UHGV virus genome: UHGV-1375786
Direction: 5' to 3' (one strand)
DNA: 45,889 bases
From: a virus
The notes under the pieces are model-generated. The model saw only the letters and a list, made by a program, of their open reading frames with translations, was not told where the DNA came from and did not search any database. Positions 874 to 29,028 of the stretch are shown here, in pieces. Within the stretch, counting starts at the first letter, position 1; the number at the start of each line of letters is the position of its first letter. The position numbers were made by a program, and so were the translations under genes.

Positions 874-898
874 AAACCCTCCATCTGGAGGGTTTTTG
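874..898. terminator. Bidirectional rho-independent terminator (CCCTCCAtcTGGAGGG + T-run)
   Basis: A perfect GC-rich hairpin followed by TTTTTGTT. It sits between convergent genes. Confidence 0.7.
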
Positions 899-1180
899 TT
901 ATGCTTTGATGTTAACTTTTATTGCGAACACCTTTACCGGTTTATCGCCGAAGTGTGGGTGTGTGATTGTCTTGATTTCATATCCGTCATACGAAACATC
1001 AATTCTGCGACTGGAATCGTCTCGTTTCGGATATCCCTTTGTGATAATCAGGCGGTCATATTCCCTGAACATGATTCGTTTATTCCAGTAGTCATTACAC
1101 AGGCGGTACTCTTCCGTTTTCTCTCCGCGAATCATGGCATCGAAGTATTCGACTTTGACGGCAAGTTGCAAGTTAGCCAT
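899..1180 (-). CDS. ASCH-domain-like protein (about 93 aa)
   Basis: GGAGGA RBS sits 6 nt upstream of the ATG at 1180, and TGATG stop/start overlap links it to the upstream gene. The VKVEYFDAMIRGEKTEEYR...ITKGYP pattern resembles the ASCH fold. Confidence 0.5.
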   Translation of the reverse strand: MANLQLAVKVEYFDAMIRGEKTEEYRLCNDYWNKRIMFREYDRLIITKGYPKRDDSSRRIDVSYDGYEIKTITHPHFGDKPVKVFAIKVNIKA

Positions 1181-1437
1181 CAGTTTTCCTCCAGAACCCA
1201 AACCGAATTACCAATGCGACTGTTATTTAAATCCTTTGATACAAGGCCATCCTTACAAAGAGAAATCAAAACCTTCCGTAACTTTGCTGCCGTCCATTCA
1301 TCATCAGGAAATTCATTCACCATCGATAGACGGAGATTCCACGTAGCCACGGAGAACTTGCGACAAATCCCAAGTGTCTCCTCCTCAATGGATTTTCTCT
1401 TTCTCATCACGTATAAAACTTTATCTTTCACATCCAT
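1180..1437 (-). CDS. hypothetical protein (85 aa)
   Basis: ORF with an AGGA RBS, translationally coupled to flanking genes. Confidence 0.5.
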   Translation of the reverse strand: MDVKDKVLYVMRKRKSIEEETLGICRKFSVATWNLRLSMVNEFPDDEWTAAKLRKVLISLCKDGLVSKDLNNSRIGNSVWVLEEN

Positions 1438-1447
1438 TTTCTTGTCC

Positions 1448-1639
1448 TCACTTAATCATCAATTTTGAAATATCAACATAACCAACACAAAATCTGTGCC
1501 AGTAATCATCAAGCACGTGGTAATTAGAGCGAATCCATACTTTGTTAATTCTGCTCCAGAAAAACCACGTCGAATAACCATGCGGCCTGAAATGCCATGA
1601 ACCTTCTGAGCGGCAAAGTTCGCCTGATATTGTTCTCAT
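1448..1639 (-). CDS. hypothetical small protein (about 63 aa; start chosen at the ATGA overlap with the upstream gene)
   Basis: ATGA overlap with the stop of the 543-aa ORF. A longer alternative start at 1723 would overlap by 88 nt. Confidence 0.4.
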   Translation of the reverse strand: MRTISGELCRSEGSWHFRPHGYSTWFFWSRINKVWIRSNYHVLDDYWHRFCVGYVDISKLMIK

Positions 1640-3267
1640 TTTAAGTTCCTCATAAATCTCATTCTCTTCATTGCTGATGACAGGATATTCCTGACTGATG
1701 AGTTCATTCGCAAACCAGACCATGAGCCGCCACCAGAAAGCCTGATATTGGATGGATTTTCAGGGTCCAACTCTATTGGTGAATGCCTGTTTTCAGATAT
1801 CGCAATGATGACCTCGTAAGTAAATTTATCCGGCGTAACCTGAATTGAGTTCGAATCGGCAGCGGAAATTATTTTGCTGATTCTGTCGCGACAAAGTTTG
1901 TTTTTGACAACTGAAATATAAGGCTTTTCAGTAAAAGCCTTTGATTCAATGCATTTTTTAACCTTCATAACAATGTTGTCCCACTCAGTGTTTTCAAGGC
2001 CATCAAACTCTGCTTCTCCCTCCAGATAATCACGCAGGTCGTACATGCTGTTCATTACGGTTGCATACGCCCATTCAATATGGCATTCCTTTATCTGCGG
2101 AGTCATGCCATTGCGCGATGATAAATCAGCAAATGCACAAAGAGTCGCAAGCTCTATAACCATCTGAGCAGAGCGAGGGCCGACGCTACCAATTACACCG
2201 GGAATATTGCTTGACTTGTCTATGCGCCTGCGCAACATCTCATAGTATTTCGAAACACCATCATTGGCATATTCCACATTAAAAAAACCACCTGGGATTC
2301 TGGGTTTCCATTCGTTTATTATTGTTTTATTAATTTCCATGTCCGGCGTATTCTTAAGTTCCGGCATGTGCTCATGACCTTTAATGAAAAGAGATCTGCC
2401 CATGCCACCATCCTTTTCCCATCTCCGTACTGTTGCAATGCCCTGCTCTGGGGTAACGGTTATGAACGGAATGAACCTTACGTTCTGTATTCCCTTATCG
2501 TTAATGCACAGGTCATAACATTGCATGGCGTGATTTAATCTTCTCCCAATGTCATGATTCATTTTTGCAAGACGACGATAATCTATGGCGCCATCTGATT
2601 CACCGATGCGAGGTATCATCCACCCCTGAGCCTGCGCAGCAGAGAGTATTAACTTCGGGTTTTGAGCACTAGCCAGCTTCTCCTGAAACAATGTAACAAC
2701 AGGTGACTCAGGAAACCAGTCACCACTAATGGACGTCCTGAACCATGAGGCTGTTTCACCAAGCGGAGAGCGCGTATCTGACCAAGCCTGAAGATGTTCA
2801 GGGCAGTCATCTGCTATATAAAGCAAGAAACCATCAGCCTCAATGAGACGCTCTTTAATTTGTCGCAATGATGTTACGGTGCTTTTTGATACGCGCGGAG
2901 TGATTCCGAGATTCTCTGAGTAAGCCTTAACAAAATCAGATGGAGCACCCTTACCTGCGCCAGAACGACCAACAATAAATGTCCCAGTGGCACACTTGTT
3001 TTTTGCGCTTGGGCCAATTATGTATCTACCAGCCATCACCTGAGCAAGCGCGATAGCACCAGGTAATCTGTACACCTCTCCTTCTTCGCGATTTTCAAAA
3101 TGATTCTCTATCTCGCACATGAATTCACCAAGAGAGCCGGGAGGTATTTTGTATCCATCACGGAATTCTGGTACGTCAATTTCATCAAGTGGATTTCCAG
3201 AATCAGGCTTACCTGTTGGCTTCAGAGATTCCTTTAGCTCAATGATTTGCTTTGAATCAGTCATCAC
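1636..3267 (-). CDS. P-loop NTPase-domain protein, 543 aa, function unknown. The Walker A GRSGAGKGA is of the adenylate/cytidylate-kinase type (GKG); LLYIADD is a candidate Walker B
   Basis: Long ORF in an operon with ATGA overlaps on both sides. The glycine-rich P-loop is seen directly. No confident family assignment. Confidence 0.7.
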   Translation of the reverse strand: MMTDSKQIIELKESLKPTGKPDSGNPLDEIDVPEFRDGYKIPPGSLGEFMCEIENHFENREEGEVYRLPGAIALAQVMAGRYIIGPSAKNKCATGTFIVGRSGAGKGAPSDFVKAYSENLGITPRVSKSTVTSLRQIKERLIEADGFLLYIADDCPEHLQAWSDTRSPLGETASWFRTSISGDWFPESPVVTLFQEKLASAQNPKLILSAAQAQGWMIPRIGESDGAIDYRRLAKMNHDIGRRLNHAMQCYDLCINDKGIQNVRFIPFITVTPEQGIATVRRWEKDGGMGRSLFIKGHEHMPELKNTPDMEINKTIINEWKPRIPGGFFNVEYANDGVSKYYEMLRRRIDKSSNIPGVIGSVGPRSAQMVIELATLCAFADLSSRNGMTPQIKECHIEWAYATVMNSMYDLRDYLEGEAEFDGLENTEWDNIVMKVKKCIESKAFTEKPYISVVKNKLCRDRISKIISAADSNSIQVTPDKFTYEVIIAISENRHSPIELDPENPSNIRLSGGGSWSGLRMNSSVRNILSSAMKRMRFMRNLK

Positions 3268-3542
3268 AGGACTCTCCAGATATACATGAATTTTTTGCTT
3301 CCACTGGTTTTTGTTTTGATGACCATTCCTTGTTCATTGGCTATTCTGGTGCAATAAGACCTGAACATGTTGTGCGTCATGCGGTACTTTTCATCGATCA
3401 CTACAGAACAGCAATTCTCCTTTTCTCCTTTTATGATTTCGCTTGAGTATTCATTCTCGAAGTGAATACCAACCAGTTCGCCAGATTTCATTGAAGATAA
3501 CAGCTCGTATGCAAACATTAATTTAGTGCCATCTGGGTACAT
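3264..3542 (-). CDS. hypothetical protein (92 aa), first gene of the leftward cassette
   Basis: Strong RBS AAGGAGGG 4 nt upstream of the ATG. Stop overlaps the next start (ATGA). Confidence 0.55.
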   Translation of the reverse strand: MYPDGTKLMFAYELLSSMKSGELVGIHFENEYSSEIIKGEKENCCSVVIDEKYRMTHNMFRSYCTRIANEQGMVIKTKTSGSKKFMYIWRVL

Positions 3543-3637
3543 TCAGCCCTCCTTTTGTTATGTAAAAAATATACATGAATATTATGTACACGTCAACGAC
3601 AGCAAGATGACGTTCTTACTTACACATCTTTACAGTA

Positions 3638-4020
3638 TTTACCGGAGTTACCGGGTTTTTATCGGGAAGTTACCGACGCAAGTTATTGATAACTATAGAG
3701 TTACCGGAGTTACCGGATTTTTTGCATATGAGAACAGAAAAATTTTAAAAATGAGAATTTGTATCAAAATTGAATAAAATGCTTATAAATCATATATATA
3801 ATAAGAAATTAAACCCTTTTTATATATGTAAGGAGTTACCAGGTAAATCCGGTAACTCGTCTGAGAGCCTTGCTACATGCGGGTTTCAAGTTACCGGACG
3901 ACCGGTAACTCCGGTAACTTTTTAATGGTGAAAACGACATAAAAGCAACGTAAGTAATTGATTTATAATAGTTACCGGTTTTTGCACATTGAGTTACCGG
4001 ATTTTTCGAGATTCGGTAAA
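3638..4020. repeat. Iteron array: about 12 copies of AGTTACCGG / CCGGTAACT (direct and inverted, including GTTACCGG-acga-CCGGTAAC) flanking an AT-rich core
   Basis: Copies located by eye include 3646, 3668(var), 3699, 3708, 3834(var), 3849(inv), 3889, 3902(inv), 3911(inv), 3970 and 3992. Confidence 0.8.
3721..3830. other. AT tract of about 110 bp, more than 85% AT by eye (candidate DNA unwinding element)
   Basis: Sequence such as ...ttttaaaaatgagaatttgtatcaaaattgaataaaatgcttataaatcatatatataataag..., bracketed by iterons. Confidence 0.6.
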
Positions 4021-4026
4021 TTAATA

Positions 4027-4055
4027 TTGACGTAGAATCACCACTGATGTAGATT
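4027..4055 (+). promoter_or_regulatory. Candidate sigma70 promoter TTGACG-17-TAGATT for the rightward early operon. It overlaps two inverted copies of the AATCTACRTCA box
   Basis: Hexamers and spacing read directly. The first ORF starts at 4086 with an RBS GAGGGTGA. Confidence 0.4.
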
Positions 4056-23048: not shown

Positions 23049-23246
23049 ATGGCTAAATACGAAGTCATCGCACGCGGAATCTTTGTTAAAGAGAAAGGCA
23101 AGATTCGTGAATTGCAGCTTGGCGAGGTGATTACCGAACCAGACGAGCATCTCCTACCAAAGCTGCGCGTTATGCCAGAGCTGAAAAAGTCTTTCGAAGT
23201 CGCAACCCCACAACAAAAGACGACAAAGAAAAAGAAAGCAGAGTAA
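23049..23246 (+). CDS. hypothetical protein (65 aa) with Lys-rich tail
   Basis: RBS GAGGTGA. Flanked by two terminators. Confidence 0.45.
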   Translation: MAKYEVIARGIFVKEKGKIRELQLGEVITEPDEHLLPKLRVMPELKKSFEVATPQQKTTKKKKAE

Positions 23247-23249
23247 AAA

Positions 23250-23277
23250 GAAAAGCCCCATGAAGGGGCTTTTTATT
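23250..23277. terminator. Bidirectional terminator AGCCCCatgaaGGGGCT with A-run/T-run
   Basis: Read directly. Confidence 0.7.
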
Positions 23278-23278
23278 G

Positions 23279-23815
23279 CTACAGACGCATAGGCATAACA
23301 ACAACCTTCGCAGTCTCTCCAGATGGCGCACTAAGGCAGCAAACTGCGGCATCTGTGCTCCCATTCAGTTCAAATTTGACACCGCAGAATTTAGGATTAA
23401 ACAGTTTCGCCACTTTCTCAATATCGACAAGGTAGCCAGCATTAAATCCAATCTCCTCTGCTGCTTTCGCTTCCTTCGGTATCACGCGATCAATATCAGG
23501 GAATCGACCATCAATCTCTTCGCAGATACCAGCACCAACCATCTTGCCAGCTTTATCATGATACGTTGCAATTTTCGACTCGGTATCAATGATGGCGTAG
23601 TCATAGCGTTTTGTTGGAGATTTGCCAATCTTGATAATCACATTTTCTGTCAGTTTGTTGTCATGACTGCCACCAATGAATGCGCGATGACCGTCAGTTG
23701 ATGAAATGCGACCATCAGTCATGAAGCAAATACCGTTAAGGTAATATCGCACATCATTGCGAGCCTGAAATATTAATGCTGATTCAAGTAATAATTTGCT
23801 GATTTTTAGTTTCAT
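23279..23815 (-). CDS. DNA polymerase III beta sliding-clamp-like mini protein (about 178 aa)
   Basis: C-terminus AKVVVMPMRL matches the E. coli DnaN C-terminus (...AAYVVMPMRL). Also RFPDIDRVIPK (cf. KFPDYRRVLPK) and EIGFNAGYLVD (cf. EIGFNVSYVLD). Confidence 0.65.
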   Translation of the reverse strand: MKLKISKLLLESALIFQARNDVRYYLNGICFMTDGRISSTDGHRAFIGGSHDNKLTENVIIKIGKSPTKRYDYAIIDTESKIATYHDKAGKMVGAGICEEIDGRFPDIDRVIPKEAKAAEEIGFNAGYLVDIEKVAKLFNPKFCGVKFELNGSTDAAVCCLSAPSGETAKVVVMPMRL

Positions 23816-24012
23816 CACTTCACCTTAATCATGTGTTGTTTTGCAACCTTCATGCATTCTTCAAAAATGCCGCCCTTCTTTGCGCTCTGATTGCGTCTGT
23901 AATACTGGATTGCCGCATCAATTGCCATCTGGTCGATTTCAGGCAGTTTGGCGCGAAGTTGTTTTTCGATGAATTGCTCAGCGTTCATTGTTCTCGCCTG
24001 CCATAAATTCAA
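23815..24012 (-). CDS. hypothetical protein (57-65 aa; start ambiguous between 24012 and 23988)
   Basis: ORF. Its stop overlaps the clamp-like start (TGATG). Confidence 0.35.
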   Translation of the reverse strand: MNLWQARTMNAEQFIEKQLRAKLPEIDQMAIDAAIQYYRRNQSAKKGGIFEECMKVAKQHMIKVK

Positions 24013-24205
24013 TGAATTGTTTTGTGCACTTCAGGCAAAGCCACTTGCATTCCTGAATGTTAATCCCTCCGCAGTCTTGGCCAATACTCCCCTTGTATGC
24101 GACGGTAAGTTCTCCGCGCTCACCATCAATATACTCATCAGGATTTTTGGTTTCATATCCGCATCTGTCACACTTATGGATTGTTATGGTTATTTTCGCC
24201 ATCAC
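23978..24205 (-). CDS. zinc-ribbon protein (75 aa; CDRC ... CLKC)
   Basis: Two CxxC pairs. ATGA overlap with the upstream ParB-like gene. Confidence 0.5.
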   Translation of the reverse strand: MMAKITITIHKCDRCGYETKNPDEYIDGERGELTVAYKGSIGQDCGGINIQECKWLCLKCTKQFIEFMAGENNER

Positions 24206-25011
24206 ATCTTCTCCAGAATTGCCATAACCTCATGAATATCAGCAACAGGAATCTGAATAAACTCCTCATCCTCTGCTGCCACATGACCAGCTGGAAGAAT
24301 TACATGGTCGGCTGGCTTCAATAACTCAACCAGACGGTCTACTGGCTTAATCTTTTTCGATTTCAGCACCTTCGCTGTTACCTTGTCCTTGCCTTGTGCT
24401 TTAGCTTCTTCAACAGCCTCGTCGATAACTTTAACCGCATCATCGCCATGTTCGCGCGTTACTGCTACGGCATTTGCATAGCTGATTTGCCCGGCACTGA
24501 TGCGCGCTTTTACTTCCGCTGGAACATCACCCAGTGACAGATGCATTTGCACGTCAGATACCGAACGACCTACCTTCTTAGCAATTTCTTCATTAGTCCA
24601 GCCAAATCCTTTCAGTCGTGTGTAAGCCTTTGCGCGCTCAAACGGGTCAAGTTGCTTGCCCTGACTGGATGACACCATAAAGGCGATTTTGTCAGCCTCG
24701 TCGCCAGTGAAATCCTTGCACTCAATACGAACGATTGGCGCTCCACGCTCAATGGCACGCAATGCACCGAGATAGCGATGCTGACCATCAAGAATGCGGA
24801 TTCCCTTCTCGTCAGGAATAACTGTTAATGCTGGTAATGGCTGACCTGATTCCCAGCACTGCGCGAAATATTCCACATGCTGTTCGTCAGCTTCGCGGAT
24901 GTTGTATCCCGGCTCAAGATAGATTTGCTCCACTGGCACGAGATAGGTTTTGTTGACAGCGATGCCGTTACGCGTTTCTTTGTCTGAATAGATTTTGCTG
25001 AGTGTTTTCAT
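24202..25011 (-). CDS. ParB/sulfiredoxin-like nuclease-domain protein (about 269 aa)
   Basis: ILDGQHRYLGALRAIERG is a DGQHR ParB/Srx box. N-terminal ParB-like N-domain, C-terminal helical and lysine-rich region. Confidence 0.65.
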   Translation of the reverse strand: MKTLSKIYSDKETRNGIAVNKTYLVPVEQIYLEPGYNIREADEQHVEYFAQCWESGQPLPALTVIPDEKGIRILDGQHRYLGALRAIERGAPIVRIECKDFTGDEADKIAFMVSSSQGKQLDPFERAKAYTRLKGFGWTNEEIAKKVGRSVSDVQMHLSLGDVPAEVKARISAGQISYANAVAVTREHGDDAVKVIDEAVEEAKAQGKDKVTAKVLKSKKIKPVDRLVELLKPADHVILPAGHVAAEDEEFIQIPVADIHEVMAILEKM

Positions 25012-25012
25012 C

Positions 25013-25204
25013 TCATTCACCACTTTCTTCTAATAAAAGTTCATAGTTTGCAATGTATGCATTGGCCAGATGATACATTAGTTCAGCAGCGCCGCGTTCT
25101 GGACCGCTGAAGTCATCAATAGAACCAGCGTTGCTGATTGCATCAACACAATCACGGAAATCAATCACGGCATTACGGAACATACAGTAGTACATGTTTG
25201 CCAT
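25013..25204 (-). CDS. hypothetical protein (63 aa)
   Basis: RBS AGGAATAATC. Coupled to flanking genes. Confidence 0.5.
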   Translation of the reverse strand: MANMYYCMFRNAVIDFRDCVDAISNAGSIDDFSGPERGAAELMYHLANAYIANYELLLEESGE

Positions 25205-25206
25205 GA

Positions 25207-25830
25207 TTATTCCTCGCCACCAGAATTAACAATGTCGTAAAATTGACCATAGGTGATCTGCTTGAAATTATCCGGTATCGTTACCTTGCCGTGGCCTTCA
25301 TCGTTTGTATTTGGCACAGCAAAAATCAGGCAATCATCCTTTTGCGGGTGTTTACCGCCATAAGTAGACAGCATTGCAAAACCAAATCCGCGACCAGATT
25401 TCTCTCCGATTCCGGTGCGTGCGATGCCATAATGGTTAACAATGTAGTCCTTCCATTCTGGCAGTAACTTTAATTTCTCGTTTGCCTCTCGCATCACTGC
25501 GTCCAGCTTTTTGTTGTATTCCCGCCCGTCCTTTGTATTTCCTTTTCCGCGAGCCACAATTACACGCTGACCTTCCCAAAGGTCTTCACGCTTTATTGTC
25601 ACTTGGCACGGAAATTCAAACTGCTTACTCCACACAAAGCTCTCAAGTAAGCCACCACCGACACCACCCCAGCTGCGTGTTGTAGTGAAAGCTACAGCAC
25701 CAACCTTTTTCATGGCGTCGCCGAGAATTTCATTGCGCTGATTCAAAATGTCGTCATATGCGTCGATGACCTTCTTTACGTCTGCGCCTTCAACCATGTA
25801 ATAGTCATAATGTTTTGCGTTACTGCTCAT
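25207..25830 (-). CDS. hypothetical protein (about 207 aa; start MSSNAKHYDYY)
   Basis: RBS GAGGTGA before the ATG at 25830. Gly-rich motif WGGVGGG. Confidence 0.55.
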   Translation of the reverse strand: MSSNAKHYDYYMVEGADVKKVIDAYDDILNQRNEILGDAMKKVGAVAFTTTRSWGGVGGGLLESFVWSKQFEFPCQVTIKREDLWEGQRVIVARGKGNTKDGREYNKKLDAVMREANEKLKLLPEWKDYIVNHYGIARTGIGEKSGRGFGFAMLSTYGGKHPQKDDCLIFAVPNTNDEGHGKVTIPDNFKQITYGQFYDIVNSGGEE

Positions 25831-25858
25831 CTCATCACCTCTAACATTTATTGTTGTT

Positions 25859-25900
25859 TCTACATCACTAACTATAAACTCCACGCCAATCTACGTCAAC
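25859..25900 (+). promoter_or_regulatory. Two direct boxes (TTCTACATCAC, AATCTACGTCAAC) followed by TGcTAAAAT (extended -10-like)
   Basis: Read directly, in a divergent intergenic region. The rightward ORF starts at 25947. Confidence 0.5.
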
Positions 25901-28951: not shown

Positions 28952-29028
28952 TGGTGGACACGGACGGACTTGAACCTTCAATCAGCCGATTATGAGTCGG
29001 TTGCTTTAACCAATTAAGCTACGCGTCC
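28952..29028 (-). tRNA. tRNA-like gene with anticodon CAU (Met or Ile2-type), 77 nt including an encoded 3' CCA
   Basis: Cloverleaf by eye: acceptor GGACGCG/CGTGTCC (one G-U), D arm GCTT-AATTGGTTA-AAGC, anticodon loop CTCATAA, T loop GTTCAAGTC, encoded CCA. One mismatch each in the anticodon and T stems. Confidence 0.55.

Follow-up and report, generated by a model that had tools for sequence, protein, structure and literature searches.

A one-and-a-half-domain sliding-clamp derivative in a siphophage genome and the possible role of its conserved pocket

What use could a phage make of a sliding clamp of which only half is left? The question is raised by a gene in the UHGV virus genome UHGV-1375786, which was analysed here as one stretch of 45,889 nucleotides (the window). 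The gene lies at 23279..23815 on the minus strand, has an ATG start and a TAG stop (23279-23281), with an in-frame GTG one codon upstream of the ATG, at 23818, as an alternative start, and encodes 178 amino acids. We call its product the mini-clamp. It is a truncated derivative of the bacterial sliding clamp (beta, or DnaN), and the family to which it belongs is large, so that this copy is not unusual. It consists of one and a half clamp domains, and selection across the family is centred on the residues of the pocket to which clamp clients dock.

Is the similarity to DnaN real? A preliminary description of the locus, made from the sequence alone, had named three DnaN motifs, and all three are present and align with E. 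coli beta where it had placed them. The segment GRFPDIDRVIPK of the mini-clamp aligns with E. coli beta 239-GRFPDYRRVLPK-250, EIGFNAGYLVD aligns with 316-EIGFNVSYVLD-326, and VVVMPMRL aligns with 359-YVVMPMRL-366. For the first of these the stated position was right and one residue was wrong: E. coli has R240, not K, before FPDYRRVLPK. The E. coli DnaN sequence used for the alignment agrees with the published one at 20 of 20 numbered residues (PMC11139829). A phmmer search against PDB sequences gave beta clamps as the only matches, the best with an E-value of 5e-13 over query residues 7-151, and in a second local match the final 54 residues of beta aligned with query residues 118-178. A family profile made from a 132-sequence alignment matched E. 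coli beta with an E-value of 1e-27. The curated models were matched below their thresholds: TIGR00663 with an E-value of 1.6e-8 and 33.9 bits (cutoff 137.65), PF02767 with 17.6 bits and PF02768 with 16.8 bits (cutoff 27 for both). For PF00712, the DnaN N-terminal domain, the Pfam search found no match in the mini-clamp. The protein is thus homologous to DnaN in sequence and falls outside the curated family of full-length, three-domain proteins of about 366 amino acids. Taken over phmmer, the family profile, TIGR00663 and the AlphaFold2 (AF2) model described below, the similarity is real homology, far above chance and not limited to short low-complexity stretches. Homology and fold together confirm a true beta-clamp homologue of about half length (178 vs about 366 amino acids).

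Which half of the clamp was kept? Note that a clamp domain is made of two beta-alpha-beta-beta-beta units, named a and b here in sequence order. For the assignment of units, profiles from three thirds of the family alignment were scored against the six units of E. coli beta. The profile of query residues 1-52 had II-a (E. coli beta 126-186) as its best unit, with 55 bits. The profile of residues 114-178 scored 32.4 bits against III-b (312-366) and 5.8 bits against III-a (246-311), and that of residues 53-103 scored 0 bits against II-b. The architecture is therefore one and a half clamp domains, namely II-a, a helix-less II-b, the FPDxxRVxP linker and III-b, all encoded on the minus strand. Unit II-a (residues 1-52; 23660..23815) contains AR-NDVRYYLNG and STDGHR, corresponding to R152, L155, T172, G174, H175 and R176 of E. 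coli. The degenerate unit II-b (residues 53-103; 23507..23659) has four strands and no helix. The inter-domain linker RFPDIDRVIPK (residues 104-118; 23462..23506) corresponds to P242, R246 and V247 of pocket subsite I, and unit III-b (residues 119-178; 23282..23461) contains EIGFN..Y (N320, Y323), a helix at 126-139 and the C-terminal VVMPMRL (V360-L366).

The reduction is common to the whole family sample. Where II-b should carry its helix, nearly all members have a segment of about 14 amino acids, and II-b is the least conserved part of the family, with the highest mean entropy. The spacing from the linker proline (P113) to the C-terminal methionine (M174) is 54-75 amino acids in 132 of 132 members, compared with 113 between P249 and M362 in E. 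coli; by this spacing none of them has complete domains II and III. An AF2 model made with the 132-sequence alignment has a pLDDT of 97.1 and a pTM of 0.91; all AF2 predictions were of the monomer, and a single-sequence run gave an unusable model (pLDDT 37). The model has the DNA-clamp fold of repeated beta-alpha-beta-beta-beta units, and DSSP assigns no helix between its residues 59 and 101, the stretch 64-72 included. In BFVD many phage proteins of 178-209 amino acids resemble this model with TM of 0.8-0.9. The clamp-like appearance that had been ascribed to the N-terminal 110 or so residues is explained by clamp domain II, and the DnaN signature at the C-terminus is the C-terminal pocket strand of DnaN. 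The idea of a half-length clamp was right as to length; a simple half-clamp it is not, as only domain II and the second half of domain III are present. Compared with bacterial DnaN (E. coli 1MMI/2POL), then, the mini-clamp lacks domain I, III-a and the second helix of domain II, lies below all DnaN model thresholds, and is mildly basic instead of acidic (median isoelectric point, pI, of the family 8.25, vs 5.25 for E. coli beta).

These results bear on the name under which the gene is usually found. The profile of PHROG 3007 matches the mini-clamp with an E-value of 2.1e-62 over protein residues 1-178 and profile positions 1-186 of 190, and its label, 'RusA-like Holliday junction resolvase', has spread into many RefSeq and pharokka-annotated records. 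GenBank labels for the gene vary among DNA polymerase III beta subunit, DNA polymerase, sliding clamp, hypothetical protein and major head protein. Could it be a RusA-like resolvase, as PHROGs and RefSeq have it? The phrog_3007 label and the record annotations derived from it are all that speaks for this, and they are contradicted by fold and homology, which are those of a clamp and not of RusA. We reject this reading, whose probability is negligible.

What do the retained parts have in common? The groove of beta binds QL[x]LF-type clamp-binding motifs (CBMs) of Pol III alpha, epsilon and delta, of Pol II, Pol IV and Pol V, and of MutS, MutL and Hda. Its subsite I is formed by R152, L155, T172, G174, H175, R176, L177, P242, R246, V247, V360 and M362, and its subsite II by H175, N320, Y323, V344, M362, P363, M364 and R365 (PMC11139829). 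All of these residues fall in II-a, the linker or III-b, that is, in the parts that the mini-clamp retains. In the 132 sequences, which are 27-51% identical to the query, the lowest-entropy columns match the pocket residues nearly exactly. Among the subsite I residues of II-a, R152 is conserved in 97% of the family, L155 in 92%, T172 in 91%, G174 in 99% and H175 in 92%. In the linker, P242 (query P106) is found in 98%, R or K at R246 (R110) in 90%, and V, I or L at V247 (V111) in 89%; in III-b the values are 73% for N320, 89% for Y323, 97% for M362, 92% for P363 and 83% for R365. At the sequence level 16 of the 18 pocket residues are identical or conservatively replaced in the query. L177 is Ala in the query and variable in the family (L, A or M), and the equivalent of V344 is uncertain. 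The C-terminus follows MPxR by 1-3 residues in 101 of 132 members, as in beta. Purifying selection across the family is thus centred on the pocket residues, and this pattern of conservation favours the binding of CBMs. Outside the pocket, conserved lysines stand on the two retained helices: K19 (72%), K134 (78%) and K137 (63%).

Is the gene intact, or is it a piece of something longer? In a tblastn search with full-length E. coli DnaN, domain I was not found in any frame of the window, and the mini-clamp open reading frame (ORF) was the sole match; the ORFs upstream of it are members of unrelated PHROGs. A full-library HMMER search of metagenomes found 1,825 related clusters (50% identity) at E <= 1e-3 and 188 at E <= 1e-10, and in nearly all of the 1,825 the homologue is 170-210 amino acids long. 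With no domain I in the window and a constant length in the family, a piece of a frameshifted longer dnaN is rejected. The window comprises nearly the whole genome of a Skatevirus/Swiduovirus-like siphophage, with 73% coverage at 91% identity to vB_EcoS_swi2, and between the mini-clamp and gp73 of swi2 (protein identity 90%) the ratio of nonsynonymous to synonymous substitution rates (dN/dS) is 0.09. The mini-clamp is a functional gene under strong purifying selection.

Short phage homologues of polIII-beta were noted in 2011, and the way they were treated there roughly resembled the view that they are dispensable remnants (Kazlauskas & Venclovas, PMC3201878). Might the mini-clamp, then, be a functionless, decaying remnant of a dnaN fragment acquired horizontally from a host? 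The dN/dS of 0.09 contradicts this, and so do the constant length and architecture over 1,825 clusters, the conservation centred on the pocket and the highly confident predicted fold; we regard a remnant as very improbable. The short homologues of that study are very probably the same family as PHROG 3007, being of about half length and often found in polymerase-less genomes (PMC3201878). The present analysis extends that account in three ways: domain III is reduced to one half, a helix has been lost, and the conserved positions are centred on the pocket. The family is therefore already known, with this copy as a typical member. The literature searched yielded no paper on the function or structure of the family, and its one-and-a-half-domain architecture, selective pocket retention and moron-like distribution appear to be undescribed so far.

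Can such a protein still form a ring around DNA? In the E. coli beta2 dimer the interface joins I78/F106 of domain I to I272/L273 of domain III (PMC11139829). Domain I and III-a are both absent from the mini-clamp, and with them the head-to-tail dimer interface; as both interface halves are missing, we infer that it cannot form a ring of the beta2 type. The DNA channel of twelve helices, two per domain, is incomplete as well, since the II-b helix is missing. That neither canonical interface region is left, and that a channel helix has gone too, speaks against a canonical ring.

Known truncated or monomeric clamps offer some comparison. One is beta*, reportedly described by Skaliter, Paz-Elizur and Livneh in 1996 as an ultraviolet-inducible, internal-start product of dnaN of about 26 kDa that forms a trimeric, six-domain clamp. 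It resembles the mini-clamp in starting at the boundary of domains I and II and in being a natural truncated beta with the pocket intact; it differs in keeping all of domains II and III. Because half of domain III is absent, the mini-clamp, unlike beta*, could not tile a ring head-to-tail. The herpesvirus proteins UL42 (a monomer) and UL44 (a head-to-head C-clamp dimer) contain two clamp domains, both complete, and work with a viral polymerase as dedicated partner. They have no sequence homology to the mini-clamp, for which conserved lysines hint at DNA binding.

A different assembly may nevertheless be considered, in which the mini-clamp truly works as a processivity or platform clamp, with its copies arranged in a non-canonical way, and recruits host Pol III through its conserved pockets. 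Here III-b would pair with III-b of a second copy about a radial two-fold axis and rebuild a pseudo-domain, giving a C-shaped dimer like that of UL44; a second two-fold contact through the II-b edges would then give a D2 tetramer of 4 x 3 = 12 units, as in beta2, and the assembly would bind or encircle DNA. The arithmetic is attractive, as four times 1.5 domains make six, and the half-domain is predicted without its normal packing partner. The conserved pocket, the basic pI of the family with conserved lysines on both retained helices, and a phage without its own polymerase would fit as well. As to the last point, the earlier statement that neither a DNA polymerase nor a clamp loader is encoded is borne out for this near-complete genome by annotation transfer from swi2 and by scans of the large unassigned ORFs. 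The geometry is less favourable. Adjacent half-domains alternate in polarity, as judged from the pseudo-two-fold within each domain, and a head-to-tail ring of three-unit protomers would therefore not be native-like, which excludes that form, while a native-like arrangement would be kept in a two-fold III-b:III-b' dimer or in a D2 tetramer. Against these forms, one of the three channel-lining helices has been lost family-wide, the unit needed for one interface, II-b, is the most variable of the protein, and a D2 ring, with pockets on either face, would be an awkward substrate for a clamp loader. On balance an oligomeric clamp seems to us unlikely. Its fullest version would be a new clamp architecture, a C-shaped dimer or D2 twelve-unit ring that sits on DNA without a dedicated loader, with pockets on both faces, and seizes host Pol III or other clients for polymerase-less phages; this we consider more doubtful still.

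What remains when the ring is given up is the pocket. The reading we favour, with belief and doubt evenly balanced, is that the mini-clamp is a stand-alone, pocket-only derivative of beta that acts early as a soluble sponge or competitor for host proteins with CBMs. Since the docking groove was kept and the ring-closing parts were lost, it probably captures host replication or repair proteins, and it would do so by binding their CBMs. The ligands would be conserved host clamp clients, because the gene is autonomous, often a lone inverted gene, and has no constant phage partner; a cassette-like distribution and the absence of a terminal CBM from the proteins of this phage likewise speak for conserved host clients over a dedicated phage partner. 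In this scenario the mini-clamp would act early in infection and draw CBM-bearing proteins off the host clamp. The likeliest targets would be clients of low abundance or weak binding, such as Hda, the translesion polymerases, MutS and MutL, or free clamp-loader delta or Pol III, and the outcome might be that host replication control and repair are rewired in favour of the phage. As a variant, the protein may act as a tether that contacts DNA through the conserved lysines of its two remaining helices and holds clients on DNA without a clamp loader, somewhat like UL42. The conserved helix lysines and the basic pI leave room for the tether, and on present evidence it is inseparable from the sponge.

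Phages are known to exploit the same beta-client surface to manipulate the host, as with Gp168 of a Staphylococcus phage (PDB 7EVP) and MuC of phage Mu (PMC12867686). These two bind host beta, and the mini-clamp, imitating the beta pocket, would bind the clients instead. The work on MuC also indicates that perturbing or titrating the beta-CBM network, for example Hda and the regulatory inactivation of DnaA (RIDA), has strong physiological effects (PMC12867686).

Several points weigh against the sponge. This phage and several other carriers are without a DNA polymerase, and since they depend on host Pol III together with beta, a decoy that took clients without distinction would harm the phage itself; for the same reason a sponge must be selective, timed, or weak against the DNA-loaded holoenzyme. 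K19, K134 and K137 and the basic pI would be superfluous in a pure sponge and hint at DNA contact or another interface. The conservation of the pocket leaves room for the oligomeric clamp, because a true clamp also needs a conserved pocket. Finally, the orphan half-domain probably exposes the surface that normally packs on the missing half, which suggests some partner, either the protein itself or another one.

How widely is the gene distributed, and does it have a constant partner? By tblastn the mini-clamp is found in 305 cultured phage records, many of them siphoviruses, and the hosts of the carriers include Salmonella, Escherichia, Vibrio, Klebsiella, Acinetobacter, Burkholderia, Proteus and Pseudomonas. 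With so many cultured records, a PHROG family of its own and the metagenome clusters given above, the suggestion that such a protein is unusual for a siphovirus is not borne out. Other phage homologues of beta are about 240-270 amino acids long (e.g., in REQ2 and Seurat) or full-length at about 370; therefore at least three truncation grades of beta circulate in phages.

The genomic contexts are varied. Kagunavirus, which has PolA, carries the mini-clamp alone and inverted between its portal and head genes, with a promoter and a terminator predicted for this one gene. It is also lone and inverted in the head module of Bcep43, where it is annotated 'DNA Pol III b subunit fragment', in Dhillonvirus, where it is annotated 'possible moron', and in SaI_NFG_5579. 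In a Proteus phage it is flanked by the major tail and the chaperone genes, and in Acinetobacter and Vibrio phages it lies within tail or baseplate genes. Replication and modification genes are the neighbours in other cases: two methyltransferase genes flank it in Sortsne, beside primase and helicase; Dam and SSB are near it in Vibrio XM1; and in BcepC6B it is directly downstream of PolA. In the lambdoid Hafnia phage yong1 it occupies 3501-4037, between cII and O/P-like replication genes. In plasmid prophages it is found in the early-left operon adjoining xis/int; those of Klebsiella, Salmonella and E. coli carry mini-clamps of about 30% identity after SPFH-domain and Rha/ORF6N antirepressor-like genes. 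A DNA-level search of complete E. coli genomes found no prophage copy. Metagenomic contigs with distant members are mostly too short to inform on context. Neighbouring genes vary, and none is constant across the contexts surveyed. A strict link to a missing phage polymerase is rejected, as Kagunavirus and BcepC6B have PolA.

Could the pocket instead serve a partner from the phage itself? The mini-clamp would then be an adaptor, an accessory subunit of a phage complex whose pocket binds a CBM-like peptide on a phage protein, with a replication, recombination, methyltransferase or ParB-like protein, or CII in lambdoid phages, as the candidate partner. A gene for a ParB helix-turn-helix (HTH) protein is upstream of the mini-clamp both here and in a metagenomic phage contig (L006) with a 39% identical relative, where the two genes stand directly in succession. 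The ParB HTH gene of that contig (5207-6004) overlaps the mini-clamp by 4 nucleotides, and the phage is otherwise unrelated. A functional pairing is possible in this lineage; it is absent in most other carriers, and the CBM-like QMHLSL of the ParB-like protein lies inside the structured HTH, as part of conserved ParB HTH sequence. DNA methyltransferase genes recur beside or near the mini-clamp in unrelated phages (Sortsne, Vibrio XM1, BcepC6B and C1/S192) and can be counted for an adaptor in Sortsne, XM1, BcepC6B and C1. In the window, however, tblastn with four phage methyltransferases as queries found no homologue, which also leads us to reject a universal link to methyltransferases.

Peptide tails are the other evidence for an adaptor. 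In yong1 the CII directly upstream (3184-3483) ends in DDSQVTMNF, of which QVTMNF is a hexameric CBM-like sequence matching Q-phi-x-[L/M]-x-[F/L] at the extreme C-terminus, and gp34 of BcepC6B ends in QMELL. Lambda CII ends in ...EQIQMEF. CII tails could bind beta or the mini-clamp, or the motif match could be chance. C-terminal hexameric CBM-like matches occur in only 7 of 1,869 ORFs across the collected loci, and chance alone gives matches at about 0.4% of ORFs. Further, no terminal CBM is found in the window proteome, no neighbour is constant, and many copies are lone and inverted within structural modules. An adaptor to a phage protein is accordingly improbable in our judgement, and the pocket module acting on host clients is preferred.

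In the window the mini-clamp is the last gene of an inverted minus-strand cluster (about 25884..23279) between the capsid and tail genes. Its ATG has a Shine-Dalgarno sequence, AAGGTG, in front of it and overlaps the upstream stop codon (TGATG); by this overlap the mini-clamp is translationally coupled to the small upstream gene (phrog_4439; 23815..23988, minus strand). Next comes a 75-amino-acid, zinc-ribbon-like ORF with two CxxC pairs (23978-24205, minus strand), for which no PHROG or Pfam match was found, and then the ParB-like gene (24202..25023, minus strand), which has ParB HTH and KorB domains and the DGQHRY motif. Directly 3' of the mini-clamp stop, a consensus scan found a GC-rich hairpin with T runs on both sides (23251..23273), which looks like a bidirectional terminator common to the mini-clamp and the convergent plus-strand gene at 23049-23246. 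At the head of the cluster there is a weak sigma-70-like promoter match, TTGACG-17-TATAGT (25871..25899, minus strand); sigma-70-like matches in this region are no commoner than in shuffled sequence.

The replication and recombination proteins of the window are a primase, an SF2 helicase, an Erf-like annealing protein, an exonuclease VIII-like protein and the ParB-like protein. The only large protein of the replication region without a clear function is encoded at 1636-3267 (minus strand); it has 543 amino acids, is 99% identical to swi2 gp21 and has a weak match to a PHROG labelled 'DNA primase' (E-value 1e-12), with no Pfam or PDB sequence match. An ORF at 896-1468 (plus strand; 190 amino acids, TTG start, rich in Cys, Phe and Ser) matches phrog_20945 with an E-value of 1.5e-49. 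It contains two QAV[IL]F motifs and was tried as a CBM partner, and was rejected because the ORF looks spurious; phrog_20945 may be built from antisense or non-coding ORFs. That the mini-clamp belongs to a defence system was considered and rejected, as PADLOC gave no hit. A tRNA-Met (CAT) gene lies at 28952-29028 (minus strand) inside the structural region, as in swi2.

What does the finding mean for phages and their hosts? One consequence concerns annotation, as hundreds of phage records are mislabelled, either wrongly as 'RusA-like resolvase' or misleadingly as 'DNA polymerase III beta subunit' or 'DNA polymerase'. The more general one concerns the beta pocket, the hub that gives the replicase, the clamp loader, translesion polymerases, mismatch repair and Hda access to DNA, and also an antibiotic target. 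A widespread phage protein reduced to little beyond this pocket would be a natural, evolution-optimised binder of CBMs. As an oligomer, the mini-clamp would represent a new clamp architecture. As a sponge or a tether, it would represent a host-takeover tool of a new kind, and a ready reagent for perturbing clamp-client interactions in vivo.

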